Part shown: positions 951-35,967 of the stretch, piece by piece
How the letters are laid out: every line of letters starts with the position of its first letter
Position numbering within the stretch: the first letter of the stretch is position 1
Source: Thermoanaerobaculia bacterium
GTDB taxonomy: Bacteria; Acidobacteriota; Thermoanaerobaculia; UBA5066; Gp7-AA6
DNA: 37,934 nucleotides
Direction: 5' to 3'
NCBI GenBank assembly: GCA_038319475.1
Contig: JBBQDF010000001.1
Span: 1-37,934, forward strand
The notes under the pieces: generated by a model
Told to the model about the DNA's origin: nothing
The model's database searches: none
Seen by the model: the letters and a program-made list of their open reading frames with translations, nothing else
Position numbers and translations under genes: made by a program

Positions 951-1151
951 TCAGGTCTTCTTCTCCACGATCGTGGGATTGTGCCGGGGGCGGCAGCGTT
1001 TCGTTTTCGGGCTCGGCCGGCGGCGAGGCTTCTTCGCGTCGTCGTCGTCCGGATCGTCGTCGCCCTCGGGGTCGGGCGGGTATTCGGGCGGTGCGTCGTC
1101 CTCATCGTCGCCTGGGAAATGCGGCGCGGCGGAGATCGGGATTTTCTTCAT
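951..1151 (-). CDS. small acidic/Pro-rich protein with a basic tail, function unknown
   Basis: ATG 1151 is preceded by GAGGTGATAG (SD) and lies 3 nt after the stop of the exonuclease gene. G/C predominates at third codon positions. The product has a DDEDD...DDDPDDDD acidic tract followed by a KKPRRRPSPKTKR basic tract. Confidence 0.5.
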   Translation of the reverse strand: MKKIPISAAPHFPGDDEDDAPPEYPPDPEGDDDPDDDDAKKPRRRPSPKTKRCRPRHNPTIVEKKT

Positions 1152-1154
1152 CTA

Positions 1155-2069
1155 TCACCTCTGGTAGAAGCCGGAGTAGTTCATCGTCCCGCCCCACGGC
1201 TCGACGCGCGCGGCAACCTCGGCGAGCAGCGCCGTGTCTGACGCGCACCGCTCTTCGAGGATGTCGAAGTGAGTCGGCGAACCGTTGAACGCGGCCTGCC
1301 GCCAGACTTCTGCGGGGACGTGCATCTTGGTCTGTTCGAGTCCGAGGAAATCCGCCGCGGCCTCGAGCGAGTTTGAGCCGATGCGCATCTTCGACCGGAG
1401 GATTTGCACCGGGTCGCGCAGCTTGCGCTCGACCGGCGGGAGGCCGTACTTCATCGCAATAGAATTGAGCCACGGGACATCGAACCACTTCCCGTTATGA
1501 GCCCACCAGACGTGGCAGTCTTCGAGGACAGAGAAGACGGCGGTCGCGATCTCGGAGTCGTCGGAGCGGTCGCGTTTGTACGTCTCGAACTGATCGAGCC
1601 GGAAGCGGTACTCTTTCGGCTCGCCGTCGCCGAAGACGAGGATGTTCGCGACGAGCAGGACGCCCCAGCCGCGATCGAGCGCGAACGTCTCTAAGTCGAA
1701 GACGGCGATCTGCAAAGGCGAGCGCGCCGTGGTCAGACGCCACGCGTGATCCTTGAAGGGTTTTCGAAGCTCGGCGGGGTTTGTCGCCTTGCCGGAGGCG
1801 ACGCGCGAGGCGCACGCCTTGTGGCTCTTCTGCTCCGGTTCCTTCTGCGTGAACGTGCCGAGGCAGATAGGGCATTGGAGCTTGTCGCCTGCGGCCCACT
1901 TCTTCTCACCGGGGTCCGCCTGAGGCTCGTAGCCGATCCGGTCAGCAACCTGCTCCGGCGATTCTGTGCCGTACCGCTTCCGGCAGGGCCAGCAGCTTTC
2001 CCCGGACGCGCGGCTAGAGGGGCGGAACTGGGAATCGCATCGAACACACGTTTTTCTCGCGTAGGGCAT
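1155..2069 (-). CDS. DEDD-type 3'-5' exonuclease (RNase H-like fold) with N-terminal zinc-ribbon motifs
   Basis: Exo I IAVFDLETFAL, Exo II WWAHNGKWFDVPWL, Exo III ERCASDTALLAEV. N-terminal CxxC pairs are present (CVRC...CWPC, CPIC). Confidence 0.7.
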   Translation of the reverse strand: MPYARKTCVRCDSQFRPSSRASGESCWPCRKRYGTESPEQVADRIGYEPQADPGEKKWAAGDKLQCPICLGTFTQKEPEQKSHKACASRVASGKATNPAELRKPFKDHAWRLTTARSPLQIAVFDLETFALDRGWGVLLVANILVFGDGEPKEYRFRLDQFETYKRDRSDDSEIATAVFSVLEDCHVWWAHNGKWFDVPWLNSIAMKYGLPPVERKLRDPVQILRSKMRIGSNSLEAAADFLGLEQTKMHVPAEVWRQAAFNGSPTHFDILEERCASDTALLAEVAARVEPWGGTMNYSGFYQR

Positions 2070-2071
2070 CC

Positions 2072-3310
2072 CTATCCTTTCGTTCGGCGCATGAAGAAGG
2101 CGACGATCGCGGCGAGCAGGACGCCCGCGCCGATGTACCAGGGGGCTTTGCTACTTGACCCCGAACCAGCGTCCGGCTTCGGGGCCGGACTCGGTGCGGA
2201 GGTAGGCGTGGCGGTGCCCGTTGGAACTGACGAGGCGGAAGGTGTCGGCGTCGGAGATGGAACGGTCGCGGTCGGAGGCGGCGCAGTGGCGGCAGGGACG
2301 GCCGTCGCGCTCGCGGTAGGCGTCGGCGAGGACGGTATCGGCGTTCGAGACGGGGCCGGTGTAGGCGTCTGGGGAAGCGGCGTCGGTGTGCAGAATAGGA
2401 ATCCTCCGGCAAAACAGGGAGTCGGCGCGGCCGATCCCCCCGCGAATGTTCGCACGGGCGTCGGGCTGGGAGCCGGCCCCGGCGTCGGGGTCGGCGCGGT
2501 CGAAACGGTCAACTGAATCTTGCCCGCCGCGGTGATGGCGATCGAGACGCCGCCCTGGGGGTCGTCGAACCGCTGCCCGGCGTGCAGATCGCCGACGTAA
2601 GCGTTGTAGCCGTCGCGGGTCAGCCGGACCGGATAGGCCGGTGAAGGTTTGGAGGTAACGAACGAATCGAGCCCGATCGCATCGCGACGCTCTACGGTGT
2701 AGAGGTTGCCGTCGGCGCGGGTTACGGAGACGGCCAGGAGCCTGCCAGTGGCGACCTCGAGCGGGGCCAGCTCGAACTCTTGCATCCCGAGCGCGGTCCG
2801 CTGCACGATGACCCGCTGCGCCCGCGTGACGGACCCGAGCTTCTCCAGCTCCCCGAACGTGGGCCAGCCCTGCGAGCCGCCCATGGTCGAATAGCGGTCG
2901 CCGCGTTCGCGCAGCTGACACCGGCCCGTCCCGTCTGAGGCGATGTCCGCAAAGCCGCAGGAGACCCCAGCCGCGTGCGAGCAGAGCAGGTAGACCATGT
3001 GAACGAACTCATGCGTGAGCGTCTCGGGGGAGAACTGCCCGTTGATCCATGCGGTATTGCCGCCATTGCAATCGGCGTAGGCCGATCCGACGTGAACCGC
3101 GCAGGGGATCGCCGGATAAACGAAGACCGTGTAGTCGCCGTCCGCGACTCCAGCAGCCCGCGCGGCGGTCCTGACCGTCCCGTTCCATGACTGGTAATCG
3201 CATTGCTTCGTAGGCGTCGGGGTCGCGAAGTGGTAGGTCGGCGCGATGGCGACCTCGAAGGTGTCCCGGCCGTAGGTGAACGTCGTGAGCCGATCCGCAG
3301 ATTCCTGCAC
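2072..3310 (-). CDS. exported HExxH zinc metalloprotease with a Pro/Thr-rich stalk and a C-terminal membrane anchor
   Basis: THEFVHMVY HExxH motif. A ~110-aa PT-rich low-complexity linker is followed by [23 protein letters not shown] (TM segment plus basic tail). The coordinates use the first canonical start (GTG 3310). The same frame upstream encodes a textbook signal peptide with no canonical start (see findings), so the true start is probably near 3433-3448. Confidence 0.65.
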
Positions 3311-3441
3311 GATCTTCCGGCCGAACTCACCCTCGAGCGGGGTTGACTTGTCGGAAAAGGATGTCGGGTAGACGACGAGGCGAATCTGCCGCGCGGGCAG
3401 GGCCGCGGCGAGGAGGAAGAGCGCGAGCCCGATCCTAGCGG

Positions 3442-3801
3442 CTAACGTCCACGGCTCTTCGCGACGGTCTCGGCCGCATCGACTCGCACCTTCATGGCAG
3501 CAAACTCGGATTCCAGGCGGACGAGCCGTTGATCCTGCTCCCGGTTGTCGGCCTTGTAGGTGATCGGATCGACGACGGATTCCCGCGTCGCGAAGCGGCT
3601 CATCACGCGGAGCTCGAAGTCCAACATCTTCTTGTCGAGCATTGCGTTGTTGATAACGGACGACGCTCCGAGCGTGGCGGTGACGATCAGCGCGAGCTTC
3701 GTCAGCGTCAGCATCCCCAGGTCGGTGCCGCGCTTTGTCGGCTCTTCTGGCATCCCACTCCTTTTATGGTGGAGGAACTCTTGTGTGTTTTCCGGGCTCA
3801 T
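3442..3801 (-). CDS. membrane-anchored coiled-coil protein (i-spanin/Rz-like topology)
   Basis: TM segment [21 protein letters not shown] followed by a charged helical region ([22 protein letters not shown]). ATG 3801 overlaps the upstream TGA (ATGA). It sits in the lysis neighbourhood. Confidence 0.5.
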
Positions 3802-4004
3802 GTTTTCGGGTTAGTGGCGTGCGGAAGCTCCTCCAGAATGGAATCGAGCCGTTGTTCCAGCACGCCGTGATCTACGAATAGACGCGAGAGCATCGCGATC
3901 CCTTCCGGGCTGGAGACGATGGTGAGCATCTTGTCGGCGATGCGGGCGTAGACGTTGCCCTCGCCTCCGGCGGTGCTCACGAGCTTCCCCACGTCGATGG
4001 TCAC
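3798..4004 (-). CDS. hypothetical 68-aa protein
   Basis: GTG 4004 is preceded by GAGGGAA and forms a GTGA overlap with the lipoprotein stop. The longer 159-aa track ORF is an Arg/Gly-rich extension that overlaps the lipoprotein gene. Confidence 0.45.
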   Translation of the reverse strand: MTIDVGKLVSTAGGEGNVYARIADKMLTIVSSPEGIAMLSRLFVDHGVLEQRLDSILEELPHATNPKT

Positions 4005-4303
4005 AGGTGTTCCCTCGCTTTCTTCAGGGCGCGCCGGATTGCGGCCTTCTCTTCGCGCGGGAGCTTCCCGATATGGTGCACCTTCCCGGCCGTCTTCAAC
4101 TCGCGCTCCGCGGCGTGGAGATCCGCTTGGAACGCCGCGCACTCCTGGGGGCCCTTGACCTCGACGCAGCCCGCCTCGTAGCGGCCCTCGTGGTACGTGT
4201 ACGCGGCCGCCTGACTCGCGAGGAAATCCTTGTCCGCGATGCAGCCCGTCATGGCGACGAGGAGCAGGAAGAGCCACACGAGCCCGCGTTTGATCCGCCT
4301 CAT
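4001..4303 (-). CDS. lipoprotein (o-spanin-like candidate)
   Basis: MRRIKRGLVWLFLLLVAMTG|C is a signal peptide with a lipobox. ATG 4303 is preceded by GGGGGAG and overlaps the upstream TGA (ATGA). The 455-aa track ORF is an upstream shadow extension. Confidence 0.6.
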   Translation of the reverse strand: MRRIKRGLVWLFLLLVAMTGCIADKDFLASQAAAYTYHEGRYEAGCVEVKGPQECAAFQADLHAAERELKTAGKVHHIGKLPREEKAAIRRALKKAREHL

Positions 4304-4602
4304 CGCTCCCCCGTCTGCTTCTCGATCTCGCGCTGGATGGCGGGTACCACGCTCGACGGCTCCCGGATTGCCAGATTCGTCAGGTCGGGGTTCGCGATCC
4401 GCTTCTCCGCCTCGGACGCTACGAGGATCTTGCTGCTCGCGTGAATGCTCCGATCGAGCCCCCACGCCACGAGCGCCGCGCCGATGTACGCCAGCCCGTC
4501 CGCGATGTTGTGTTCGACGAGCTTCCCGACTCCGAGCAGGAAGAGGCCGGCCGCTCCGATGCGGCCGACCCCCTGCTGGAGTAGAAGCGCGAGTCCAGGC
4601 AG
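4300..4602 (-). CDS. two-TM small membrane protein (holin-like candidate), apparent CTG start
   Basis: Hand translation: LPGLALLLQQGVGRIGAAGLFLLGVGKLVEHNIADGLAYIGAALVAWGLDRS...EKQTGER. G/C predominates at third codon positions from the first codon. There is no ATG/GTG/TTG before the second TM. CTG 4602-4600 directly follows AGGGGGATAG. The first canonical start (GTG) would give a 56-aa product lacking both TMs. Confidence 0.5.
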   Translation of the reverse strand: MPGLALLLQQGVGRIGAAGLFLLGVGKLVEHNIADGLAYIGAALVAWGLDRSIHASSKILVASEAEKRIANPDLTNLAIREPSSVVPAIQREIEKQTGER

Positions 4603-4612
4603 CTATCCCCCT
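4600..4612 (-). promoter_or_regulatory. translation-initiation motif AGGGGGATAG-CTG (copy 1)
   Basis: This 13-nt string is identical to 32066-32078. It reads as an SD-like AGGGGGA, then TAG, then CTG. Confidence 0.5.
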
Positions 4613-5414
4613 ACGACTGGAACGGCGGGCGGGCAGCCGAACGGGTCCGGACGTTGAACTGCTCGCGCGTCTCGCCGGGGCGCGCGTCCTGCGGCCAGCA
4701 GGCAGAGTCGCCGTCGAAGTCCGCCTGAGAGCTCGCACCCTGAGACGCCGGCCTGCCGTCGAGATCCGGCTGAGACTCGCCCGGCCGCCGCGTCGCCGGA
4801 TTCGCCGGATCCACCGGATGCGCCTGAGATCTCGCACCCGGAGACGCCGCGCCCCTCGCGTCGAAGTCCGCCTGAGACTCGCCCGGCCGCCGCGTCGCCT
4901 GAAGCGGCAGATGCGCCTGAGATCTCGCACCCGGAGACGCCGGACCGGGGCCCGGAGCGGCCGGGCCGCCGACGAAGTTGCGTCGCGTCGCCGCGCTCCG
5001 CTCGTCGTACTGAGCCTGAGACTCGCCCGCCTGACGCACGAGAGTTCCCGAGGGTTCCGCCCATGGGGCCGGAGCCATGCCCGTCGGCACCTTCCCCGGA
5101 GTGCCCGGAGGGAACGTGTCCACGTGGGGGCCCGCCGCCAGATCCGCCTCGGCCTTCGCCGCCGCCGCGGCCTCGTCCCGAGCCGCCGACGCCACGACGT
5201 ATTTCTCGGCCGCCTGGGCCAGACCGCCGACGAGCTCGATCTCGGGAAGCTGATTCGGGAAGTAGTTCTCCGCGAGCTTGACGGCCTCTTCGAGCGTGTC
5301 GAGCCCTTCGATGACGGAGATCCGTCCGTCGACGATCGCGTGCTGGATCTCGTTGGCGAGGCCCGCAACCGGCGTATTCGACAGAATCTGAAACAAGAGA
5401 TTCAGGTAGTTCAT
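4611..5414 (-). CDS. hypothetical protein with internal RPGESQADFD-type repeats
   Basis: ORF-track ORF with SD AAGAGG before ATG 5414. Peptide repeats: RQAGESQAQYDER, RRPGESQADFDAR, RRPGESQPDLDGR, ARPGETREQFNVR. Confidence 0.6.
   Translation of the reverse strand: MNYLNLLFQILSNTPVAGLANEIQHAIVDGRISVIEGLDTLEEAVKLAENYFPNQLPEIELVGGLAQAAEKYVVASAARDEAAAAAKAEADLAAGPHVDTFPPGTPGKVPTGMAPAPWAEPSGTLVRQAGESQAQYDERSAATRRNFVGGPAAPGPGPASPGARSQAHLPLQATRRPGESQADFDARGAASPGARSQAHPVDPANPATRRPGESQPDLDGRPASQGASSQADFDGDSACWPQDARPGETREQFNVRTRSAARPPFQS
4770..4941. repeat. in-frame DNA repeats inside the 4611..5414 gene
   Basis: An exact 28-mer occurs at 4770-4797 and 4872-4899. An exact 31-mer occurs at 4818-4848 and 4911-4941. 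Confidence 0.85.
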
Positions 5415-5430
5415 CGGAGCCTCTTTCTGT

Positions 5431-5901
5431 TTAGGCGGTCACGGTATGTGGCACGCCGGGTTCTACTCGGCACTCGAGGTGGGGCCCGTCGGTCCACCCC
5501 GCATCCTTCTTCCCGTCACAGTCCCAGTCCAGGCCGCTGCGTAGCCCGTGCGTCTCGGCGATTGCGATCAGCGGCTCGTAGAACTCGACGTGCGTCCCGT
5601 CGTACCCGGCTCGAGTGAAGACGCCGAGATCGACCGCGTGCGCCGCGACTTCGCCATGCCGCTCCTGCGCCTGATGCCGGCTCTTATGGTTCACCCCGTC
5701 GAGCGTCGTGACGAAGTTGCCCGGCCCGATCGGCGCGAGGGTTCGGCCGACGGCGTAGAGCGCCTGCTGTTCGCGGAGATCCCGCAGCGTGTACACGACT
5801 TTCGCGTGACGCGCGGAGTCGATCGCATCGAATTCGGCGATTAATTTCGGGATGTGGTAGCGGAGGATGGAGCAGGTGAGAGACAGGTCGCGTGATGGCA
5901 T
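5431..5901 (-). CDS. endolysin, peptidase M15 (VanY / L-Ala-D-Glu peptidase-like)
   Basis: SRHQAQERHGEVAAHAVDL matches the SxHxxGxAxD-type zinc site, and the distal PHLE supplies a further His. At 156 aa, its size and its position next to membrane and lipoprotein genes fit an endolysin. Confidence 0.7.
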   Translation of the reverse strand: MPSRDLSLTCSILRYHIPKLIAEFDAIDSARHAKVVYTLRDLREQQALYAVGRTLAPIGPGNFVTTLDGVNHKSRHQAQERHGEVAAHAVDLGVFTRAGYDGTHVEFYEPLIAIAETHGLRSGLDWDCDGKKDAGWTDGPHLECRVEPGVPHTVTA

Positions 5902-5904
5902 CCG

Positions 5905-13111: not shown

Positions 13112-14773
13112 TCACCCCGTAAAAATCGGCACTTCGACTGCGGTCTTCGCCGTGTTCCCGATCGACCGAGGCTTGGCGGCGAGGTCCGCGCGCCCGCCGA
13201 GCAGGCTGTTCATGAAGGAGGTCTCCCCGCCGTAGAGGTTCGAGAGGCCTGCCGCGCCCGCGTTGCGGTCCTGCCGCGCGAAGTCCTCGAAGCCCATCCG
13301 GCTGCTGCGCACCGCGTTGGAGCCCGCCGCGGCTTCGTGCGCGCCGACATTGGCGAGCGCGGCGTCCGTCCCGCCTGTGCCGCCCGTCGCCGCCGCGTGC
13401 CGCTTGATCTGCTCCCCCGCGCCTTGGAACCCTGCACGCGCCGAGTTCACCGAGTCCTGGATGATCGCGCTCTTCGTCGGATCGGAGAGGCCGGGATTCG
13501 TCTTCATGTTCATGTAGGTGTCGTACGCGTTGCCGCCCGCGAGCTGCCGGTTGCCGGACGCGCCACCCTGTCCCCACATCTGCCCGCCCTCGGAAATCGC
13601 GCGGCCCTGCGCGTCGTAGCCGAGCGTGGGCCCCTGGAACGCGCCGGAGAAGAACGGGCTCGCTTCCGGGATCGGGTCGCCCGGCTGGCCGCCCGGAGGG
13701 GTCGTGTCGCGCGGAGGCAGCGCGATCGGCGGCGGCACGTTGCCGGTCGGCGGGATCACTGGAGCCCGCGGCGGTACGGCCGGTGGTGCCGTCGTCGTCG
13801 AGCTCGGCGACTTGCCCGGCGACTGGCCCGGCGGCTGGCTCACGTTGCCGGTCGGCGGGATCACTGGAGCCCGCGGCGGCGTGGCCACCGTCGAAGTCTG
13901 CGCGGCCTTCGCCGCGAGTGCTGCGCGCCCCCGTTCCGCTTGTGCCGCGAGCGCCGCGTCGGTGTCCATGAATTGCCCGAACTGTGAGGCGTCGTACGGT
14001 TTTCCGGTGATCCCGTAGCCGCTTTTCATCCCCATCGCGGCCTGCGGGTTGTAGGTCATCGACTTGTCGTTTTCGATGCCCTTGAGCCATTCGTTCGTCG
14101 CGGTGTTGTTCGGATCGTCAGGGCCGGATTCGTTGGGGAACGGATCGGTTCCGACGCTCAAGTGCTCCGCGCCCTTGTAAATGCGACCGTTCGGCCCGAC
14201 CGGGTAGTTCTTGTATCCGGCCGGATCGACGCCGAGCTCACGCATCTTGTCGCGCGCCTCCTGACTGATGCCCGAGAGATCCATCCCGTTGACCATGCCG
14301 CCGTCGCTCATGTCGTACGCGCCAGCGCCGGGGCCGCCGTTGTAGGCGTCTGCTGGCGCATAGGATCGGTCGAGAGCATATCTGCCGCCGGTGCCGCCGG
14401 AACCTCCTCGATCGCCACCACCGCTACCACCGCCGGAGGAACTCCCGAAAGAAGGACCTTCGTTCGCGCCGCGGACGATCGGCCCGTTGTTGCGGCGCGT
14501 ATGATCGCCGTCCGAGCCGTCCTGATCGTCGGCCGGCGGCGGCGTTCCACGCGGCGGATGCAACGTCGGGTCCGCCTCAGCGTCCGGTCGCGTGTACGGC
14601 CCGGCCATCGCCCGGTTGCCGTACATCTCGCTCGCAAACGCGTTGGCGGTCGGACCCATGTCCGTCCCGTAGTCGTAATTCAGGTTTCCCGACGTGCTCT
14701 GATCGCGCGTCTTCGAGCCGATGTCGAAGCTACACGCGACCGCGAGGGCCTGCGTTCTGAGGTTCAACCACAT
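13112..14773 (-). CDS. Gly/Pro-rich low-complexity virion-internal-like protein (553 aa)
   Basis: ATG 14773 (TGATG junction with the GNAT stop). The track start at 14776 is a TTG one codon upstream. Contains PPRAPVIPPTGNV twice. Confidence 0.65.
   Translation of the reverse strand: MWLNLRTQALAVACSFDIGSKTRDQSTSGNLNYDYGTDMGPTANAFASEMYGNRAMAGPYTRPDAEADPTLHPPRGTPPPADDQDGSDGDHTRRNNGPIVRGANEGPSFGSSSGGGSGGGDRGGSGGTGGRYALDRSYAPADAYNGGPGAGAYDMSDGGMVNGMDLSGISQEARDKMRELGVDPAGYKNYPVGPNGRIYKGAEHLSVGTDPFPNESGPDDPNNTATNEWLKGIENDKSMTYNPQAAMGMKSGYGITGKPYDASQFGQFMDTDAALAAQAERGRAALAAKAAQTSTVATPPRAPVIPPTGNVSQPPGQSPGKSPSSTTTAPPAVPPRAPVIPPTGNVPPPIALPPRDTTPPGGQPGDPIPEASPFFSGAFQGPTLGYDAQGRAISEGGQMWGQGGASGNRQLAGGNAYDTYMNMKTNPGLSDPTKSAIIQDSVNSARAGFQGAGEQIKRHAAATGGTGGTDAALANVGAHEAAAGSNAVRSSRMGFEDFARQDRNAGAAGLSNLYGGETSFMNSLLGGRADLAAKPRSIGNTAKTAVEVPIFTG
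13736..13879. repeat. exact 39-bp direct repeat inside the gene (13736-13774 and 13841-13879)
   Basis: CACGTTGCCGGTCGGCGGGATCACTGGAGCCCGCGGCGG occurs twice with 105-bp phasing. Confidence 0.85.
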
Positions 14774-15183
14774 CAAAGCTCCTTCTGGAATCGGTGGACG
14801 AGATCGAACGTCAGATGCATCCGCGGATCGCTCTTGAACCCGTAGCGGGAGAGCACGAGGCCCTTGTTCATCGTTTCGAGGTTCGGCTCCAGAGGCACGA
14901 TCAGGCTGTCGCAGCCCTCTTCGTAGACGGCCCGCGCGAACGTCGGCCAGACGCTCTTCAGCACGTGCAGCCGGCGAAGATCCGTCCCCGCGGAGGGGTC
15001 GAGCATCAGCACCACTTCCGCCGTCTTCCGGGCGAGGATGCAGGCGATCACGTGGCCCTTCTCTTCGACGACGAAGGCGGTCTTGTGAAGGCGATAGGAC
15101 GGATCAGTGAAGCGGACGCCAGCGCGCGCGGCTACCTGTTCGAGGGCCTCGCGATCGCGCTCGTCATACTTGCGGATGTTCAG
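14773..15183 (-). CDS. GNAT-family N-acetyltransferase-like protein (136 aa), apparent CTG start
   Basis: LNIRKYDERDREALEQVAARAG...VVEEKGHVIACIL...MNKGLVLSRYGFK follows the GNAT layout. The track ORF (GTG 15051, 92 aa) would remove the N-terminal third. The 44 upstream codons are open, with G/C predominating at third positions, and contain no ATG/GTG/TTG. CTG 15183 overlaps the upstream TGA (CTGA) after GGTGATAG. Confidence 0.55.
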   Translation of the reverse strand: MNIRKYDERDREALEQVAARAGVRFTDPSYRLHKTAFVVEEKGHVIACILARKTAEVVLMLDPSAGTDLRRLHVLKSVWPTFARAVYEEGCDSLIVPLEPNLETMNKGLVLSRYGFKSDPRMHLTFDLVHRFQKEL

Positions 15184-20856: not shown

Positions 20857-21519
20857 TTAACGGTGTGCCGAACTGAACGGAATGCGCCGTCCCGCCTTGT
20901 ATTGAGCCCTGTTCACGTGTCTCCGCAGGAACCGATTCGCCTGCTTCTCGTACTGGCCCGACAGCCGATCGCCGAGAGAATTCGAGCCGCGCGAATACGC
21001 GCAAGCCGCCGCCGTGAAAGTCGCCAGCACGTTCAACGCGCCGCCGATTAAGATCGGATCGGTCCCGGTCGTGAAGATCGCCAGCCTGGACTCGTACTCG
21101 AGCCGGATGTCCGTCGCGACCGTCGCCGCCTGAATGTTGATCCGGTTCTGATACCAGCCCCACGTCCCGCGCGTGCTCATGGGCGTTACGTCGGACAGCG
21201 GGACTTCTTCGGCCTCGTCCATTTCGACGAACTGGTCCGTCGTGCCCGTCGCCCGCTCCTCGAGCCCGTACGGCAGGATGAAGTCAGCCGGCAGCGCGGG
21301 CGTCGAGGAGCCGTCCAAGAAGAGAACGCTCGCGCCGACGTTGGACAGCACGACGCTCGAACGGTTCACCCCGGCCTGGTTTGTCGAGAGCCGCTCCTGA
21401 AGCTCCAGATACGCCTCGTTGGCAAGCGGCAGCATGGCCGTCGCGTCCCACACCGCGCCCTCGCGGTCCCCGACCTTCGCTTTCGCTAGCGCGACGAGAT
21501 CCGAATAGAGGTCGGCCAG
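20857..21519 (-). CDS. adaptor/tail-tubular-A-like structural protein (220 aa), apparent CTG start
   Basis: The track ORF starts at GTG 21453 (VWDAT...). The same frame is open upstream to TAG CGG CTG and encodes LADLYSDLVALAKAKVGDREGAVWDATAMLPLANEAYLEL, an N-terminal pattern I associate with phage adaptor/tail proteins. It contains no ATG/GTG/TTG. Confidence 0.5.
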   Translation of the reverse strand: MADLYSDLVALAKAKVGDREGAVWDATAMLPLANEAYLELQERLSTNQAGVNRSSVVLSNVGASVLFLDGSSTPALPADFILPYGLEERATGTTDQFVEMDEAEEVPLSDVTPMSTRGTWGWYQNRINIQAATVATDIRLEYESRLAIFTTGTDPILIGGALNVLATFTAAACAYSRGSNSLGDRLSGQYEKQANRFLRRHVNRAQYKAGRRIPFSSAHR

Positions 21520-21522
21520 CCG

Positions 21523-22251
21523 CTAGCCTTTGGCCTTTCCGGGCTGCGCGAGCGGCTGGATGAATCCGCGATCGAGCCCGCGCGTCTCCTCCGCGTCGTC
21601 CAACGCGCCCATGTCGTACGCCTTCTGCCAGTCGAGGACGTACCGACACTGCGCACACCGCACCGCGGCCGGATCGTTCTTCGCTTGACACGCTCCGCAG
21701 ACCTTCACCGTCGAGATCACCCCGGCCCACTCCTTCGTGATCCCGAAGTAGTCCGCGAACCATCGCGCGTGATCGCCCACGTCCCGAGGATTCTTCCCGC
21801 GAGCCCACCGCTTGTCCGCCTCGAGGATCTCGGTGCGGCCGTACTCCTCGAATCGCTCCCGACACGCCGCGAGATCCTCCGCGGCCGGCCCCTCGTCCGC
21901 ATCATCCCCTACGTAAAAGACGCCGCGGTCCTGCCCCATCGAGGAGAGTAGATCCATCGCCCGCTGCTTCGCCGACACGATCACCGGCTCCGCCTGCCCG
22001 TTGCCGAAATCCTTGAACGCGTTGTAGCCCTTGATCGGCACGAGGATAAACGGCTCATAGGTTCCGTCCTTGCGACGCGGACACGCCGGGATCTCCATGT
22101 TGCCGCCCTGGTCGTGCCGGCGGTACGGACTCCACGGCGAGATCGAGCAGAGATACGCCGTCTCGCCTTCGAGCCGCTCCGCCTGCTCGTCCGAAAGCGT
22201 CCCCACCATCCGGTTACGCGTGTCGATTCCACCCATCGGCTGAAAAGCCAT
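21523..22251 (-). CDS. hypothetical protein with a C-terminal zinc-ribbon (CGAC...CAQC)
   Basis: ORF-track ORF with a TAATG junction to the upstream gene. Confidence 0.55.
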   Translation of the reverse strand: MAFQPMGGIDTRNRMVGTLSDEQAERLEGETAYLCSISPWSPYRRHDQGGNMEIPACPRRKDGTYEPFILVPIKGYNAFKDFGNGQAEPVIVSAKQRAMDLLSSMGQDRGVFYVGDDADEGPAAEDLAACRERFEEYGRTEILEADKRWARGKNPRDVGDHARWFADYFGITKEWAGVISTVKVCGACQAKNDPAAVRCAQCRYVLDWQKAYDMGALDDAEETRGLDRGFIQPLAQPGKAKG

Positions 22252-23265: not shown

Positions 23266-24533
23266 TAGCCGGTCGGGCGTGCAAGCCCTGAAATATAGGA
23301 TCCGCGCCGCGGGTTGTCCTGGAAAATCTGGAAGCTCGAGATGAGATACCAGATGAACCCCGCCGCGAGTCCCCCGGAGGCCGCGTAGATCGGGAACACG
23401 GTATCGTTGCCGATCTGGAAGTAGTCCACTTCCTGCGAGACGGCGCGCCCCCACGAGGAGAGCGAGAGGAAGTCGATACGAGTCGGATCCGCGTGGATCG
23501 AGGACTTGATCGGGACGCCCGCCATCGTCTTCACCTTGAAGAACGGCTCGAGCGCCTGATTCGGGTCGGAGCCCTTGATGATTTCCGAGAGCACGAAGCC
23601 GATGTCTTCGTAGGCGTGCTCCTGGGCGAGGTGCATGTACGCGACGAGATCGTCGGGCACGCCGTCGTTGCCGAGCACGAGGCGAATCTTGTTCAGCGCG
23701 AGTCGGACGTGAGTCGTCGTCAGCGCCGCGCTCCCCGCAACCACTTCGGGCGTCCGGATCTCGGGGTACGTGGCCCGATTGAGGTTGAGCCACGTGCCGC
23801 TGTTGGCCGAGCTCTGATGGTAGGGAATCCCGAAGAGAGACTGAGCCGTTCCGGAACCCGCGATGATGCCCTGGATGGTGATCACGTCGCCGGTCGCGGT
23901 GCTTGTCGCGATGACCGAGACCGTGACGGTGAGGGCCGCCGGGTCGATCGCCGTGACGATCATGGTGCCCGCCGCGTCCGATCCGCCCCCGGTGCGCTTG
24001 GTGGTCAGCGCCGCGGAAGTGAACGCGTAGATGTACTGACCCGAGTAGAACAGGGACGTGCCGAAACTGCCGGAAACCGTGATGACCACGCCGGCCACCG
24101 AGGCGACGGTCGCGAGGATGCCTCCGCCAGAGGTCTGACAGAGGACATCGAGTGCGGTGCGCATCTGCTTCATCGCAGATTTCGTCTCGCGCTGGACGAT
24201 TTTCTCGATGCCCTTCTCCGACGTGTTGGTCGAGATGTCCGTCTTCTTGGTGAGTTCCACGGCAAACTTGAAGTCCACCGGAGTCAGCGTGGCGACTTCG
24301 TAGAAGCTCGCCCCGCCGCGACCCATGTCGCCGCCGTCGAGAGACACCTGCCCGAACGATCCGCCGGGCCGAATCGCGAGTGGAATACGCATCGCTCGCG
24401 AGGAGACGGTTTCCTCGTCGGCCTTTTTCTCCAGCATGGAATAAAACGTGTCGTCGCGCTCGTAGAGGAGCGGGAGCTTGTCCCGGACCTTCTCGAGCTG
24501 CGTCGCCACGGTGTCTGCGTTGATCTGTGCCAT
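23262..24533 (-). CDS. major capsid protein (HK97-fold type)
   Basis: 423 aa, located directly after a scaffold-like gene, with GAGGATAG-ATG initiation. The composition and length are typical of tailed-phage MCPs. The call rests on context and overall resemblance, not on a searchable motif. Confidence 0.7.
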   Translation of the reverse strand: MAQINADTVATQLEKVRDKLPLLYERDDTFYSMLEKKADEETVSSRAMRIPLAIRPGGSFGQVSLDGGDMGRGGASFYEVATLTPVDFKFAVELTKKTDISTNTSEKGIEKIVQRETKSAMKQMRTALDVLCQTSGGGILATVASVAGVVITVSGSFGTSLFYSGQYIYAFTSAALTTKRTGGGSDAAGTMIVTAIDPAALTVTVSVIATSTATGDVITIQGIIAGSGTAQSLFGIPYHQSSANSGTWLNLNRATYPEIRTPEVVAGSAALTTTHVRLALNKIRLVLGNDGVPDDLVAYMHLAQEHAYEDIGFVLSEIIKGSDPNQALEPFFKVKTMAGVPIKSSIHADPTRIDFLSLSSWGRAVSQEVDYFQIGNDTVFPIYAASGGLAAGFIWYLISSFQIFQDNPRRGSYISGLARPTGY

Positions 24534-24550
24534 CTATCCTCTGGCCCGCG

Positions 24551-26117: not shown

Positions 26118-27953
26118 TTAGTTCGGCACTCCGAGCCCACTCGTCGGAATGACGATGAAGGCTGTGAACTCCGGCGCGGTCGTAACGACCGTCGTTTCGC
26201 TCCATCCGTTGGGCTGCGCGCCCGTGTGGGTCGCGGCTGACGTGTCGAAGGTGAACGAGACGCCCGTCGAGAACGTCCCCGACTGGATCGCTCCGAGCCC
26301 CCAATTCAACCCGTCATAGACGTCGAACGTCTGGCCGGAGAGCATGCCGCAGGAGTCGATATTGATCGCCTTCGTGCTCGTCGGCGTGTTCGGCCGATAG
26401 ACGTAGATGTTGCAGCGGCCCTTCTCGTAACGGTTCGGGCGAATGAAAGGGGCGGGGCTCGCCGCCGCTCTCCACTGCGCGTTAGTCTGGTAGAGGTTGC
26501 CGCTGACGCCGGAGGCCGGGCAGGTCGTGCAGTTGACGATCGGCGTCGAGGCGATGATGGTGTTGCCCGTGAAAATCTCCCCGGTGATCGTCTGTGAGAG
26601 AAGTCCGCCGCCAAAGCCGCCCGTGCTCTGGTTCGCATCGGAAACGTGATACTCGTTTTGGATTCTCGGCAAGTACGCGCCCGCGTCATATCCGACGTTG
26701 ACCGTCGAGGTCGCGCCCTTTCCAGTCGTCATAGCGTTGTAGGTGAAATTGTTCCGCAACGTGCCTCCCTGCGAGGGATGCCCGACGTTGCCCGTCCCGA
26801 CGAGAAAGTTGTAGGAGCGGGTCAGGTAGCGGGCCAGCAAGCCAGGGTTTACGGAGAGGTTTCCCTCCGCCGTTTCCCAATCGACGTTTCCGCTGGAGCT
26901 GTAGACGTGGAGGTCGTTGTTCCAGTTGTCGTGCATGATGTTGTCAAAAAAGCGCCGATTGCCAACGATGTTCTGCGAGTAGACGGCAACGCCGCGATTG
27001 TTCGACTGCGCGATCGTCGTGTGCGCCGTCGCGGTGCAGCCGCCGGAGAAGTTGACGATGGGTGGCTTGGAGACTTGAGTCGCGTAGCCGTCCCAATAAA
27101 GCGAGCCACAGGTGCCCGGATACGCGCCGCAGTCCATGCCGTTGGCCTGATAGCCGGAGGAGGTCGCGGCCGTAAACCCGGTGACCGCGCCGCCCGACGT
27201 TGTCGCGGTCGGAGCCACTGCGCCGGTGCCGGTCGTATCGCCCGAAGCGGCCGTAAAGGAAACCACCGTGCTCGTGCAACCGGCTCCGCCCGTGTCGAGA
27301 AGAACGCCGCTCACATAGGCCGGCGTGCCGTCGTTGCCCATGTGGAAGAACTGGCTCCCGTAGATTTCCCAGCCCGTGCCCGAGTCGGCCCCGAAGATCG
27401 AGAGGCCGCTCGTCAGGTTGTCAACAACGCAGTTGATGATGCGGTTATTGATGTACGGCCCGCCGCCGGAATGGGAGTAGAGGCCGCCGGAGCGCGTCAA
27501 GCCGTTCGAGTAAGACGACGGCAGGGGAACACCCTCGCGGCGCGTCTCGGTGCTCGAGGACGTGAAGCGCAGGCCCCAAAGCCAGACGTTCGAGGCGAAG
27601 AATTCGACCGCGACGCGGCCGTCCGTGATCGTCGAGGCGGCGAAGTCGATCACCGGGAACTCGCCAGGATAGGCGCGGTAGACGACCGGGGCCTGAGCCG
27701 TTCCCGACTTCGAGAACTGAAGCATCGGGTTATTGCCGAGCCCCGCGGCGGGTAGCGAGTACGTCCCGCCACGCAACCAGTAGGTGTCTCCGGCGGCCGA
27801 AGGGCCACAGGTGCCGTTCTTGGCCGTCGCGATACCACACGGGGACGCCTTGGAGCCCGTCGTGCCAGAGCCCGAGGTCGACACGAACCAAGTCGCCGCA
27901 TCGGCCTGCCCGGCCGCGAGAAGAAGCGTGAGAGCGAAGAGGGCTTTCTTCAT
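26118..27953 (-). CDS. secreted right-handed beta-helix (pectate-lyase-fold) protein, putative polysaccharide depolymerase
   Basis: MKKALFALTLLLAAGQADA|ATWFVSTSGSGTTG...GDTYWLRGGTY has the N-terminal pattern of DUF1565/beta-helix proteins. Repeated NxxI/V...G turns are present. The junction with the upstream gene is GTGATG. Confidence 0.7.
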   Translation of the reverse strand: MKKALFALTLLLAAGQADAATWFVSTSGSGTTGSKASPCGIATAKNGTCGPSAAGDTYWLRGGTYSLPAAGLGNNPMLQFSKSGTAQAPVVYRAYPGEFPVIDFAASTITDGRVAVEFFASNVWLWGLRFTSSSTETRREGVPLPSSYSNGLTRSGGLYSHSGGGPYINNRIINCVVDNLTSGLSIFGADSGTGWEIYGSQFFHMGNDGTPAYVSGVLLDTGGAGCTSTVVSFTAASGDTTGTGAVAPTATTSGGAVTGFTAATSSGYQANGMDCGAYPGTCGSLYWDGYATQVSKPPIVNFSGGCTATAHTTIAQSNNRGVAVYSQNIVGNRRFFDNIMHDNWNNDLHVYSSSGNVDWETAEGNLSVNPGLLARYLTRSYNFLVGTGNVGHPSQGGTLRNNFTYNAMTTGKGATSTVNVGYDAGAYLPRIQNEYHVSDANQSTGGFGGGLLSQTITGEIFTGNTIIASTPIVNCTTCPASGVSGNLYQTNAQWRAAASPAPFIRPNRYEKGRCNIYVYRPNTPTSTKAINIDSCGMLSGQTFDVYDGLNWGLGAIQSGTFSTGVSFTFDTSAATHTGAQPNGWSETTVVTTAPEFTAFIVIPTSGLGVPN

Positions 27954-29062
27954 CACGAGGTCGGCGCGACGAAGGTGTCGAAAAAGACGGAGATCCGGAC
28001 GACGCCGGTCGCCGCGCCGGGCGTCGCGTTGGGGGTGATCCGAATCTTGACCGCCGAGGTCTGCACGGGGCCAGCCGCCGACGTATTCGTCGGGTCCATG
28101 TGGAGCAGGCCGACCGCCGTGGTGTTCGCGGCAACCGCTACGCCCGTAGCAAACCGCGCGGGAGTTGTCGCATCGCCGACCGTGAACGTCGCGGCGGTCG
28201 GGATGGCGGTCGTGACGCGGACGACGACGGCACGAATGATGGAGTTGGCCGGGAGCAAGTTGCCGACCGTGTCGGTAGATGTCGCGGCGGCGATTGTCAA
28301 GAGCTCGTTGATCTCGCCGCGCTGCCAGTATTGGCCGTTGCCGGTGCCGCCCGGGCCGACGTAGATATTCTTGACCGAGTTGGCCGTGGAGCCGAGGTCC
28401 TTCGATCCGTTGGGAACCATAGACGAAGCACCCATAGAGAAGATGGACGCGCCTCCGATCTGGAACCGAATGTTGTTGTCGGAGCCGAGGTTGAGCCCGT
28501 TCTCCGTCCCGGTGCCGCCCTTCGTCGAGAGAATCTGAACTTGGTTTGACCCCTGCGCGAAGTTCACCGCGAGCTTGTGGTAGTTGACCGGAGTCGTGTC
28601 CGAGTCCGTCGTCTCGTAAATTTCGAACGCCTGGTTATTCGTCAAGGCGATCTCGCGAATCGTGTTCGCGCCCGAGGGGCGCAGGTTGGCGAGGTCGAAG
28701 GTGAGCGTTCCGGCGGCGAAGCGCGGGAGACCTGTGACTCCGGAAACGTCCTGACCGAACGCGCCCTGCGTCAGCGGGAAGGTGCCCGAAGTCACGTCGC
28801 CTGCCGCGTGGGTGTGGACGCCGATCTGGGCCGCCGCAATCGTCGTGATGCCCTGAATGGTCGTGGCGTTGGTCCACTGCGCGATCTGGTTGGCGACGGG
28901 GGTCCCGCTGATTGCCACCGCGCCGCCACCACCGCCGCCGGGGGTGTCGATGCGTTTCGCCGCAGAAGAGGCGATGATCGCGGCCGATTGCTGTTGAGCA
29001 AGGCCGCTCGAGGAAACAAGAAGGGCGGTCAGAGCCGCCAGGATCAGCGCGGTTTTTTTCAG
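27953..29062 (-). CDS. signal-peptide, tail-fibre-like protein (369 aa), apparent CTG start
   Basis: The track ORF starts at GTG 28918. Forty-eight open upstream codons encode LKKTALILAALTALLVSSSGLAQQ..., a Sec signal peptide, with no ATG/GTG/TTG. CTG 29062 overlaps the TGA of a mini-ORF (ATGAGCTGA). The HTHAAGDVTSGTFPL motif resembles phage fibre proteins. Confidence 0.6.
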   Translation of the reverse strand: MKKTALILAALTALLVSSSGLAQQQSAAIIASSAAKRIDTPGGGGGGAVAISGTPVANQIAQWTNATTIQGITTIAAAQIGVHTHAAGDVTSGTFPLTQGAFGQDVSGVTGLPRFAAGTLTFDLANLRPSGANTIREIALTNNQAFEIYETTDSDTTPVNYHKLAVNFAQGSNQVQILSTKGGTGTENGLNLGSDNNIRFQIGGASIFSMGASSMVPNGSKDLGSTANSVKNIYVGPGGTGNGQYWQRGEINELLTIAAATSTDTVGNLLPANSIIRAVVVRVTTAIPTAATFTVGDATTPARFATGVAVAANTTAVGLLHMDPTNTSAAGPVQTSAVKIRITPNATPGAATGVVRISVFFDTFVAPTS

Positions 29063-29740: not shown

Positions 29741-32068
29741 CTACTGCACCGGAGGTGCGGTTTGATCGTCGCCCGGAGCGCCACCGGGCGTCTCGGGCGG
29801 AACGGCCGTAGCCTGCTGAGCCTGCAAGATCGTCGCGCACTCATCCAGTCGCATCCGCAGCGCCATCCACACGTCGGGCCGCGTCTGCCGCGTCTCCTGC
29901 CCCGCGTCCGACGCCGCCCACTCGCGGATCGTCGCCGCGATCACCTGCGCGTCGTCCATCATCGGATCGACTGGAGGCATCCCGGCCGGCCCTTCCTGAA
30001 TCGCGCGCGAGATCACCCGAAGCTCCGACTCCCGCTCCGACGCGCCGGGAATCTCGATCTCGTCGGCCATCCCGGAGTACTTGAAAAACGTCTCCGCGTT
30101 GGACGGCCGCGCGAAAAGCGCAGCGAATGCGGGGTTGGCCGACGCGGCCTCGACCGCCTGCCGCCGCTTCTCGAACGTCACCGGATACGCCTCCGTCACG
30201 TCCGGGTAGGCGCGAATGTTGCCCTTCAATTCGTCCAAGCGGATGAGCTTGGAATCGAGAGTCCCGGCCGGGCCCATCACGGCGATCTTCACGTCCGCGG
30301 GCCGGTTCTCCTTGAAGCACTCGACCGCCATCCCGTCGATGTCCGCGAGGAATCCAACCATCGTGCGCCACAGCAGCCCGATCCGGCCGAGCCCCTGATC
30401 CCGCTGATCCGCGATCCCCGCGGCCGTGTCGTTGCCGCCCGTGTCGCCGCCGAAGATCGCCGGAAACGCCCCGACGAGAAACTGCCCGATCTCCGACCGC
30501 AGCTCTCGCAAATATTCCGGAATGAACTGGGAGAGCGTCGCCGGCTGCGTCTGGAAGAAGTCGCCCGGCAGGCTCCCACCCTCCGACGGCATCGCCCCGA
30601 ACACGAGCCCAGGGATCGACCCTGCCTCGCGGAATGCGGCGATGTCCAGCGTGTCCGAATTGACGAACAGCGCCGGGATCCCGTACTCCGCCGTCTCGTA
30701 GAGGATATTCGAGAGCGCGTTGTACTGCTTCTGCACCGGGATCAGCGACGAGCCGACGGCCTCGCGGTTCTGGCCCTCGCCAGGGAAGGCGTGAACCACC
30801 TTCCACCGCTTGTCCATTTCGTCCTCTTCCGCCTCGCAGTACGTGTCGCCGCAGAACGTGACCTTGACGCCCTTCGGGAATCGCCGCAGCAGTTCCGCAC
30901 GGATCGTCTCGTCCTTCACCGCATAGAACGCCCACGGCCGGAACCACGTGCGCCGCAGCGGCAGAAGCACCTGCCCGAGCTTCCCGCCCGCTCGAGCCGG
31001 GCCCGTGCCGGATTCCAAAAGCGCGATGTTCGTGCTCTTCTCGTACGCCTGCGCCGAGGCCGCCTCGCCCCCGCCGCTGCCCGAGTCGCCCGACTTGTCA
31101 ATCCGCTTCTCGATCCACGGATAGGTCGCGATAACCCGCGCCTTGTGGAAGTAGCCCGAGTAGGTCAGAAACGGGTACTGATCCTGCTCCTGCGCGTAGG
31201 TCGGCAGCACGAGGTTCAGAAACGAGACGAGCTCCAACATTTCCTGTCCACGTGGCGTGCGGTCGATCATCTGCTGCCCGGTCGTGGGATCCATCGCGGG
31301 AGCCGTGAACGTGACCGGCTCGCCCTCGCGCATCGTGGATGGGTCCAGCGGCGTCCCACACTCCGGGCACGTCGGCTGCGTCTGGCCCGGATCGGGCGCA
31401 GGCACGGGACCGCTCACCCCACAGTCGGTGCACGTCGCGACCGGATCGCCGGGCTTCGTCTGGAGCTCCGTCCGGGGCGTCTCGTCCACCCCGTACTTCT
31501 GCTCGTCCGCGACGTAGCGCACAAAGCCCGCGCAGCCGCCGTCGTTGAACAGATAAAACATGATGTCCTGAAGGAGCTTGGGAATCGGGTTGTTGCGCCG
31601 GAAGAGTTGCGCCACGTCCGTCGCCGCCTTCGAGGTCGCCACGTCCGAATGGTTCTCAGGATCCGCCGGCATCCACTTCGTGCGCGGATTGCCCTCCGTC
31701 AAAACCGAGATCAGCGTGAGCCCGAACGCCTGATAGAGGTTCGTCACGTGCTGATACCGCGGCATCATGTCGAGTTCTTTGTCGGTGAGCTTGTCCTGGC
31801 CGGGGATCTTGAACTGCCCTGTACGCTCGTCGAAAAAGTAGTAGTGGAGCCCCTTCCACATTTCGCGGGCCTCGCGGATCTTCCTCAGATCGTCGCGGCG
31901 CGCGACGGAGACCTCAGCCTCGAAGTCGTAGACGAGTTTCCGCAGCGCCGTAACGCCTTCGGCCCACTCCTTCTCGAGATCGGGATTTTTCCCCGGCGAT
32001 GGCGTCCCCGGCGAGGTGCCCGCAAGATCGACGGGCTCGGGAGGTTGAGGCTGATAGGCGCTGGACAG
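29741..32068 (-). CDS. portal protein (putative), apparent CTG start adding 69 N-terminal residues
   Basis: The large ORF lies downstream of the terminase, and size and position fit a portal. The track start is ATG 31861, but the frame stays open for 69 more codons (LSSAYQPQPPEPV...EKEWAEGVTALRKLVYDFEAEVSVARRDDLRKIREARE), with G/C predominating at third positions, up to AGGGGGATAG-CTG at 32068. Confidence 0.6.
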   Translation of the reverse strand: MSSAYQPQPPEPVDLAGTSPGTPSPGKNPDLEKEWAEGVTALRKLVYDFEAEVSVARRDDLRKIREAREMWKGLHYYFFDERTGQFKIPGQDKLTDKELDMMPRYQHVTNLYQAFGLTLISVLTEGNPRTKWMPADPENHSDVATSKAATDVAQLFRRNNPIPKLLQDIMFYLFNDGGCAGFVRYVADEQKYGVDETPRTELQTKPGDPVATCTDCGVSGPVPAPDPGQTQPTCPECGTPLDPSTMREGEPVTFTAPAMDPTTGQQMIDRTPRGQEMLELVSFLNLVLPTYAQEQDQYPFLTYSGYFHKARVIATYPWIEKRIDKSGDSGSGGGEAASAQAYEKSTNIALLESGTGPARAGGKLGQVLLPLRRTWFRPWAFYAVKDETIRAELLRRFPKGVKVTFCGDTYCEAEEDEMDKRWKVVHAFPGEGQNREAVGSSLIPVQKQYNALSNILYETAEYGIPALFVNSDTLDIAAFREAGSIPGLVFGAMPSEGGSLPGDFFQTQPATLSQFIPEYLRELRSEIGQFLVGAFPAIFGGDTGGNDTAAGIADQRDQGLGRIGLLWRTMVGFLADIDGMAVECFKENRPADVKIAVMGPAGTLDSKLIRLDELKGNIRAYPDVTEAYPVTFEKRRQAVEAASANPAFAALFARPSNAETFFKYSGMADEIEIPGASERESELRVISRAIQEGPAGMPPVDPMMDDAQVIAATIREWAASDAGQETRQTRPDVWMALRMRLDECATILQAQQATAVPPETPGGAPGDDQTAPPVQ

Positions 32069-32078
32069 CTATCCCCCT
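32066..32078 (-). promoter_or_regulatory. translation-initiation motif AGGGGGATAG-CTG (copy 2)
   Basis: Identical 13-mer to 4600-4612. Here the TAG is the stop of the 32069..32473 gene. Confidence 0.5.
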
Positions 32079-32473
32079 GCCGAAGGACGCGCCGCCGCGG
32101 CGGGATCCGTCATTCCGGGCACCGGATCGCTCCAGTCGCCACCGGCCGCCGTCTCCGCGTCCGATTTCGCCTGGAGGCGCTGCACGAGCTCGTCGCCGCG
32201 GATCGGCCGGAACCCGCGAGGCTTCGACGCGCCCGTCGGAAACGCGATGTTGTGGCCGGATGGCGATTTCTGCGAGAGGTACATCCCCTCCCACTTGTCC
32301 GCACGGGCCCGCTCCGCGTTGACGAGCGAAACCCACCGCGTGCGCTCGAAGGCGACATCCTTCTCGAGCTTCGTCACGAGCGCCGCGAGCGTCTCGAACG
32401 CGAGCCGCGACACCCACGGCCAGAAAATCCGCTTCGGTCGCGCGACGACGGGAGCCGGAGTCGGCTCGCTCAT
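32069..32473 (-). CDS. hypothetical protein (134 aa)
   Basis: ORF-track ORF with an ATGA overlap at 32473/32470. Confidence 0.55.
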   Translation of the reverse strand: MSEPTPAPVVARPKRIFWPWVSRLAFETLAALVTKLEKDVAFERTRWVSLVNAERARADKWEGMYLSQKSPSGHNIAFPTGASKPRGFRPIRGDELVQRLQAKSDAETAAGGDWSDPVPGMTDPAAAARPSAGG

Positions 32474-35895: not shown

Positions 35896-35967
35896 TGGTG
35901 GCGGGGGCGGGATTTGAACCCGCTCCTCCGGGCAGATGAAGCCTGGATCGCTCCGAAGCGCCCCGCG
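35896..35967 (-). tRNA. initiator-tRNA-like element (anticodon CAU), non-canonical D arm
   Basis: Minus-strand RNA: CGCGGGG-CGCUUCGGAGCG-AU-CCAGGC-UUCAUCU-GCCCGG-AGGA-GCGGG-UUCAAAU-CCCGC-CCCCGCC-A-CCA. It has a perfect T arm, a 6-bp acceptor stem with an unpaired 1:72, and an encoded CCA. The D arm is replaced by a 4-bp/tetraloop hairpin, the anticodon stem has an A-C mismatch, and position 37 is C. Confidence 0.45.

Follow-up and report, generated by a model that had tools for sequence, protein, structure and literature searches.

How does translation begin in a phage gene whose reading frame opens with CTG directly behind an in-frame TAG and reaches its first canonical start codon only at codon 45 of 100? 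This question is raised by a holin-like gene (4300..4602) in a 37,934-bp stretch of DNA from a Thermoanaerobaculia bacterium, referred to in the following as the window. The window is an entire contig (C1; JBBQDF010000001.1) of a 618-contig, 3.28-Mb metagenome-assembled genome (MAG), which is 76% complete. It belongs to an uncultured soil phage, has a GC content of 66%, and its coding strand is the minus strand almost throughout; the features of the window given below with coordinates are all on this strand. The sequence leads us to propose that translation of the holin-like gene is truly initiated at CUG by formylmethionyl-tRNA (fMet-tRNA), aided by a close and strong Shine-Dalgarno (SD) sequence and by coupling to the upstream stop codon. 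We assign this explanation a probability of roughly 0.7.

At the junction, the minus strand reads ...CAG TCG TAG (4613-4611), GGGGA, TAG (4605-4603, in frame), CTG (4602-4600), CCT GGA... The first TAG is the stop codon of an upstream gene of 267 amino acids (aa) that is read in another frame and ends 8 nucleotides (nt) before the CTG. The holin-like frame runs to TGA 4302-4300 and contains two moderately hydrophobic segments, whose 15-residue Kyte-Doolittle averages are 1.9 and 1.55. Codons 1-44 show a coding-type composition (GC content at codon positions 1/2/3, GC1/2/3, of 0.84/0.41/0.84), and the values for the whole gene are 0.73/0.44/0.86. Upstream of the in-frame TAG, the same frame has a GC3 of 0.60-0.65 and a GC1 near 0.9, and is thus not coding there. 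A preliminary description of this DNA had the frame open directly after the in-frame TAG with G/C-rich third positions, which is what we find. It had also placed the first ATG, GTG or TTG behind both transmembrane helices. The frame has just two canonical starts, GTG 4470 (codon 45) and a GTG at codon 85; codon 45 is indeed the first of them, but it falls within the second hydrophobic segment, GLAYIGAALVAWGL, and not after it. No ATG, GTG or TTG is present in any frame in the ~25 nt before CTG 4602. As the in-frame TAG abuts the CTG, translation arriving from upstream cannot enter the holin frame, and the holin-like protein would hence need de novo initiation at the CUG. Two other candidates were rejected: a -1 frameshift from the 267-aa gene, which the in-frame TAG would stop, and the ATA within GATAG as a start codon, which is in the wrong frame.

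The CTG is the last codon of a 13-nt sequence, AGGGGGATAGCTG (4600..4612), which consists of the SD sequence AGGGGGA (4612-4606), the in-frame TAG and the proposed start codon. The SD duplex at CTG1 with the canonical anti-SD has an energy of -9.3 kcal/mol, and the pairing stops 3 nt before the codon. Both strength and spacing are in the range of the best ATG sites of the phage, such as ATG 20843 (-10.9 kcal/mol, 3 nt), ATG 12476 (-10.2 kcal/mol, 2 nt), ATG 25879 (-9.3 kcal/mol, 4 nt) and ATG 4303 (-8.6 kcal/mol, 3 nt). In the 101-nt stretch around CTG1, folding is weaker than in 197 of 200 shuffled sequences (z = +1.99), and weak folding is typical of initiation regions. Near-cognate codons found before codon 45 are CTG1, ATC15, CTG22, ATC33, CTG37 and ATC40, among which only CTG1 and ATC15 have a strong SD sequence.

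The protein family also indicates where the protein begins. A profile search of 1.84 billion representative proteins gave 28 matches at E <=1e-3, mostly 98-154 aa long. In a 24-sequence alignment, no member lacks either hydrophobic segment, a K/R-x-G motif is preceded by about 9 residues or more in each of them, and L1 of the window protein aligns to the Met1 column. The N-termini of P0013 (MDKLATIVLQRGGKLG), P0015, P0035 and P0038 are as short as that of the window protein, (M)PGLALLLQQGVGRIG. The residues LPG, which are codons 1-3 in the window, are invariant in the three closest sequences. Both helices are likewise present in two 116-aa homologs (42% and 53% identity), together with the invariant tail SEAEKRIANP..L...EPSS.VPAIQ.EIEK, which in the window protein reads SEAEKRIANP...VPAIQREIEKQ. 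Four metagenome loci gave more family members with GTG starts or contig-end positions, and the JGI metagenomes gave only distant holin-like homologs, with ATG or GTG starts. No holin-like homolog was found in four IMG/VR records that are related to the window via the capsid-like protein. Homologs without the N-terminal transmembrane region had been named earlier as a finding that would speak against the CTG; all 24 aligned members keep this region. As the whole family conserves it, a start at GTG codon 45 would remove a conserved part of the protein.

The sequence around the start is not unique to this gene. The 13-mer AGGGGGATAGCTG has exactly two copies in the contig, both on the minus strand, at 4612..4600 and 32078..32066. 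Its chance expectation is 0.02 copies, and two or more copies were obtained in 0 of 100 shuffles (motif counts were compared with 100 shuffles, RNA folding around the start with 200). The preliminary description had reported this exact recurrence at 32066-32078, and its coordinates are right for both copies; on the minus strand the motif reads AGGGGGATAGCTG. No further copy with at most one mismatch is present in the contig and no exact copy elsewhere in the 3.28-Mb MAG. The second copy is located at the start of a large portal-like gene, and its TAG is the stop codon of an in-frame upstream gene of 134 aa. A related motif, GATAGNTG, is found in six copies in the window as opposed to 1.3 expected, a count that was reached in 1 of 100 shuffles. 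Five of the six are at minus-strand gene starts and precede three CTG and two ATG codons. The ATG cases are GGTGATAG-ATG (1149..1156, ATG at 1151) and GAGGATAG-ATG (24531..24538, ATG at 24533), in which the GATAG spacer is followed by a normal start, in the latter case that of the capsid-like gene. Both had been pointed out before, and together with the three CTG cases they support the earlier proposal that CTG occupies the slot of ATG in a recurring context. The third CTG case in this context, at 15183, was absent from the earlier list.

In addition to CTG 4602, four more probable CTG starts were found in the window, at 32068, 29062, 21519 and 15183. The portal-like gene (29741..32068) has 775 codons from its CTG, which directly follows the TAG, and its first ATG is codon 70 (31861); the 134-aa gene upstream (32069..32473; GC3 0.88-0.90) is in the same frame. 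A gene for an exported protein (27953..29062) begins with (M)KKTALILAALTALLVSSSGLA, and the first GTG of its open frame is codon 55. Its CTG 29062 overlaps the TGA of a 2-codon mini-ORF (open reading frame), ATG AGC TGA. In an adaptor-like gene (20857..21519), CTG 21519 is part of the sequence TAG CGG CTG GCC GAC (21525..21511). Finally, a GNAT-like (acetyltransferase-like) gene (14773..15183) has the start GGTGATAG/CTGA, where the CTG overlaps the upstream TGA, and its first GTG is codon 45. At these four sites, the CTG either overlaps the upstream stop as CTGA or is 0 or 3 nt away from it. All five CTG codons are hence within 0-8 nt of a stop codon or overlap it, in four cases after a real gene and in one after the mini-ORF.

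In four phage ORFs that are coding-like before the first canonical start, CTG is the first post-stop codon in three and the second in one. With an internal CTG frequency of 1.9%, the probability of finding it in first place in at least three of the four is 2.6e-5. The 26 modelled minus-strand genes start with 20 ATG, 1 GTG, 0 TTG and 5 CTG codons, so that CTG outnumbers GTG and TTG together by five starts to one. RNA folds showed no structure shared by the five CTG sites. The name of the portal-like gene is positional: its protein has no Pfam, PHROG or PDB match, and an AlphaFold2 model built from a 4-sequence alignment was unusable (predicted local distance difference test score, pLDDT, of 37). 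This protein also has a four-cysteine (CxxC...CxxC) insertion at about residues 213-237, three cysteines of which are invariant in all four homologs. The GNAT-like protein likewise has no Pfam, PHROG or PDB match.

A sister phage, a Logan contig (SRR29078161_24505) assembled independently from another run and with a 65% identical portal, allows these starts to be compared. The sister portal begins with CTG AGT AGC GCA TAT (L-S-S-A-Y) and that of the window with CTG TCC AGC GCC TAT, with different Ser codons. In the 59 aligned portal codons before the first canonical start, 21 codons are identical, 16 are synonymous and 22 are non-synonymous; synonymous changes in such a region are typical of translated sequence. 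Relative to the first ATG in the window, the MAT... start of distant portal homologs (35% identity) is located about 60 residues further upstream. The adaptor-like start has the same 15 nt, TAG CGG CTG GCC GAC, in the sister phage, and the 29 codons that precede its first canonical start are conserved at the protein level. At this start point, distant relatives have ATG. In the GNAT-like gene, the sister phage has an ATG exactly at the codon homologous to the CTG of the window. The motif GATAGNTG is absent from the sister phage, which suggests that the GATAG spacer is a habit of the window phage and that the use of CTG is older.

The same comparison bears on two ways in which the TAG-CTG junction might be misleading. 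First, an error in assembly or consensus could have made it, as the contig comes from a 618-contig MAG. However, the same 13 bases are present at two sites, five genes share the feature, and two of the CTG codons are reproduced in the independently assembled contig of the sister phage. An error of this kind is therefore very improbable. Second, TAG might not be a stop codon in this phage as a result of amber recoding, suppression or programmed read-through, in which case the protein would have a start further upstream or be part of a fusion with upstream sequence. Homologs of the holin-like protein carry Gln (CAG) at the TAG position, the 134-aa gene shares its frame with the portal-like gene, and TAG is frequent in the phage, where it makes up 10/26 stops. 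In the sister phage, however, the portal CTG overlaps the TGA of an upstream 148-aa gene (CTGA), and since the frame of this TGA is not that of the portal, these are two distinct genes and a read-through fusion with the portal is excluded. In the window, the holin frame before the TAG is not coding and lacks ATG, GTG and TTG in its last ~20 codons. Moreover, the SD-ATG starts at 12816 and 20420 immediately follow the TAG stop of the preceding gene, and a search for tRNAs with a CTA anticodon was negative both in the phage and in the MAG, which is 76% complete. Taken together, this makes a recoded TAG hardly credible.

Several observations weigh against initiation at CTG 4602. The sister comparison covers the portal-, adaptor- and GNAT-like genes only; a search with the endolysin-like protein did not return the sister contig among its matches. 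Close relatives of the holin-like gene were found neither in IMG/VR nor in GTDB genomes, 175 genomes of the same order or cultured phages. The MAG lacks the 3' end of the 16S RNA, and the anti-SD was taken as canonical. Compared with what is usual in E. coli, the spacing of 3-4 nt between SD and start codon is short. In a manual count, codons 1-14 reach a GC3 of only ~0.71, and a second SD-like sequence, AGGGGG, is located 8 nt before the ATC at codon 15. Finally, the nearest homologs, P0008 and P0009, have an ATG start 7-10 codons further upstream, and they read CAG CTC CCC GGC (Q-L-P-G) where the window has TAG CTG CCT GGA.

The two nearest homologs, with their ATG start and CAG in place of the TAG, point to a possible history in which the gene has recently been damaged: through a small deletion, or through a change of CAG to TAG, it would have lost the ATG and the first 7-10 codons, and the frame would now be silent or truncated from GTG codon 45, without membrane helices. 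At another locus (L005), the upstream gene ends with ...TCG TAA and is followed by a short spacer and an ATG, and the window junction looks like a shortened version of this arrangement. A random scar, however, would not yield an exact 13-mer with a strong SD that is shared with the sister-conserved CTG of the portal. The gene has also retained its full coding composition and an intact conserved tail, several members of the family are equally short at the N-terminus, and the downstream lipoprotein gene still overlaps the stop codon as ATGA. Furthermore, four other genes of the phage, including the presumably essential portal-like gene, share the arrangement. We consider such a loss of the start unlikely.

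The second AGGGGG could instead serve a start at the near-cognate ATC codon 15 (4560-4558), which would leave the first 14 codons untranslated. The corresponding duplex of -10.1 kcal/mol ends 6 nt before the codon, which is a more classical spacing, and the lower GC3 of codons 1-14 in comparison with the rest of the gene fits such a start. On the other hand, this AGGGGG is made of conserved Gln-Gly codons (CAG GGG), and the closest homologs show no variation in the LPG of codons 1-3. None of the 24 aligned members starts at the K/R-x-G position of the ATC, all of them having at least about 9 residues before it. A start at this codon would also leave the 13-mer common to the portal site unexplained, and ATC is as weak a start as CTG in E. 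coli (bioRxiv 10.1101/063800). Initiation at ATC15 is thus quite improbable, and the preferred reading is still that translation starts at CTG 4602. The segment 4602..4300 is then most plausibly an intact lysis-cluster gene that encodes a small membrane protein with two helices.

The following mechanism would account for such a start. The fMet-tRNA (anticodon CAU) would read CUG 4602-4600 with a mismatch at the first codon position, and the weak codon would be made usable by the G-rich SD sequence AGGGGG, which ends 3-4 nt upstream, and by the unusually open RNA around the start. Ribosomes finishing the 267-aa gene would restart at the CUG 8 nt on by termination-reinitiation. Such ribosomes could restart there because the stop codon is 8 nt before the CUG and the operon is without an internal promoter or terminator: no promoter-like or terminator-like site was found in 3300-6200. 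We infer that CUG is accepted more readily by ribosomes that reinitiate than by free 30S subunits. The output would be low, which would suit proteins needed sparingly, such as the holin-like protein or the portal with its 12 copies.

A further element of the phage may be related to the use of CTG. An initiator-tRNA-like RNA is encoded at 35896..35967, with a CAU anticodon, a miniature D hairpin (CGCU-UCGG-AGCG), C37, a CGCGGGG/CCCCGC(A/C)-ACCA acceptor stem, an unpaired 1:72 position and an anticodon stem whose third G-C pair is flipped. The sister phage has a conserved counterpart (L003 ~3683-3754), in which the 1:72 position is the canonical C1xA72 mismatch and the T stem has undergone a compensatory change from GCGGG/CCCGC to GCAGG/CCTGC. 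A pattern search did not find it in four distant relatives that use ATG at the portal and/or adaptor starts, two of whose records are estimated to be 95% and 100% complete. In the window and in the sister phage, the anticodon is CAU and not CAG, and it does not match the CUG start. A search of the window against Rfam gave no match, and the element was not scored as a tRNA. We entertain, as a speculation with little weight, that the phages of this clade use CTG as part of an expression programme of their own and not through passive near-cognate leakage, with the tRNA-like RNA acting as an initiator that escapes proofreading by initiation factor 3 (IF3) and raises initiation at SD-GATAG-CUG sites.

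The surroundings of the holin-like gene look like a lysis cassette. Two genes upstream, at 5431..5901, is a probable endolysin, a CwlK-like L-Ala-D-Glu peptidase, identified by the JGI name of a 48%-identical homolog (P0011) alone; the endolysin-like protein has no Pfam or PDB match of its own. It is followed by the gene for the 267-aa protein (4611..5414), which has no Pfam or PHROG match. The C-terminal half of this protein, encoded in 4700-5000 between the endolysin-like and holin-like genes, is made up of imperfect repeats of the type ...RRPGESQADFDARGAASPGARSQAH... Downstream, the ATG (4303-4301) of a 100-aa lipoprotein gene (4001..4303; GC1/2/3 = 0.67/0.44/0.89; MRRIKRGLVWLFLLLVAMTG/C) overlaps the TGA of the holin-like gene as ATGA, and its product is a spanin candidate. 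The gene that follows at 3801/3753..3442 encodes a membrane-anchored coiled-coil protein. Within 3442-4303, the lipoprotein and the anchor/coiled-coil protein resemble an o-spanin/i-spanin pair in reversed order, with a small ORF (~4000..3798) in between. In the locus L013, a distant member of the holin-like family is likewise found after a CwlK-like gene in a lysis cluster.

The name holin-like, too, is a positional one, and the strongly conserved tail would be unusual for a holin. The protein matches no holin family in Pfam or PHROGs, and one of its 24 relatives has a weak match to an unnamed PHROG. Its resemblance to class II holins would lie in its small size, two helices, a charged C-terminal tail and a location between the probable gene for a peptidase-type endolysin and that for a spanin-like lipoprotein. 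It differs from them in that it has no Pfam or PHROG holin match, a tail that is more conserved than usual and only moderate hydrophobicity.

The remainder of the minus-strand gene set includes a T4-type large terminase (TerL), recognized by Pfam and PHROG matches, the portal-like and capsid-like genes, tail genes and a tape-measure-like gene of roughly 1,840 codons (ATG 11421 to stop 5905); the tape-measure gene of the sister contig encodes 2178 aa. Searches of the neighbouring proteins against Pfam, PHROGs and PDB sequences matched only TerL, a methyltransferase and an RNase H-like domain. The stop codons of the 26 modelled genes are 11 TGA, 10 TAG and 5 TAA, with TAG being unusually common for a GC content of 66%. 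In-frame TAG and ATG codons abut each other at 20423-20418 and 12819-12814.

Initiation at CTG is known but rare, and what is unusual here is its frequency and the common 13-nt start site. In model bacteria, CTG makes up ~0.024% of annotated starts (PMC11983097), and in E. coli reporters CUG gives 1-2% of the output of AUG (bioRxiv 10.1101/063800). The share of CTG in the phage, 5/26, is far above the former value and also above that in the host MAG. A scan of the MAG for coding-like regions before the first canonical start gave 86 candidates, mostly spurious, with no excess of CTG at codon 1 (3/86), and a handful of such starts would be present among ~2,000 ORFs. A few individual cases look convincing. 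In a HAD hydrolase gene (C294:3048(+)), the Pfam domain begins at residue 8 and the first canonical start is codon 65; the others are an SSF symporter (C205:3172(-), TAG/CTG), an OEP efflux protein and a Wzy_C ligase (C404:2308(-), C2:4717(+)). The MAG also contains a SelD-like (selenophosphate synthetase) ORF (C393:3113(-)) with an in-frame TGA just before a ...CKIG motif, which is probably a selenocysteine codon.

A close precedent is the rep gene of FIB plasmids (P307, F, pO157), in which CTG together with a good ribosome-binding site of the GGAGG type sets a low protein level (PMC11983097). This start was proven by N-terminal sequencing, a CTG-to-CTC change abolishes function, and the gene is routinely misannotated in databases at a downstream GTG (PMC11983097). 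Common to both systems is a CTG with a good SD sequence. They differ in that the former concerns one plasmid gene with a proven start and the latter five phage genes known from sequence, two of them with the identical 13-mer. In Deinococcus, rpsL and Deide_03051 start at CTG and dnaA at ATC, and the start of RpsL was established by proteomics (PMC2830850). There, the CTG start is conserved among relatives, and it came to light since without it the protein would lack conserved N-terminal residues (PMC2830850). In contrast to the phage genes, these are cellular housekeeping genes with proteomics data, without a common start motif and without clustering in one operon system. Termination-reinitiation requires overlaps or very short distances between stop and start (PMC10666635, PMC9955659). 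In coupled gene pairs with ATGA or TAATG junctions and in the lysis genes of the RNA phages MS2 and GA, the start is within a few nt of the upstream stop, as it is here, and in MS2 and GA the coupled gene is also a low-output lysis gene. The known examples, however, restart at AUG, GUG or UUG.

These starts have consequences for annotation and for the understanding of phage translation. Gene callers limited to ATG, GTG and TTG truncate the proteins: public calls of the portal-like protein are 706 and 718 aa long as opposed to ~775, and a caller of this kind would reduce the holin-like gene to a 56-aa fragment lacking the membrane helices, or miss it. The sites would be useful for asking how far reinitiating ribosomes relax their choice of start codon. 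They also belong to the few cases in which the translation signals of soil-bacterium phages have been looked at. The arrangement suggests that the weakest near-cognate codon, combined with a strong and close SD sequence beside an upstream stop codon, may be a reusable means of setting low protein levels in a phage late operon.

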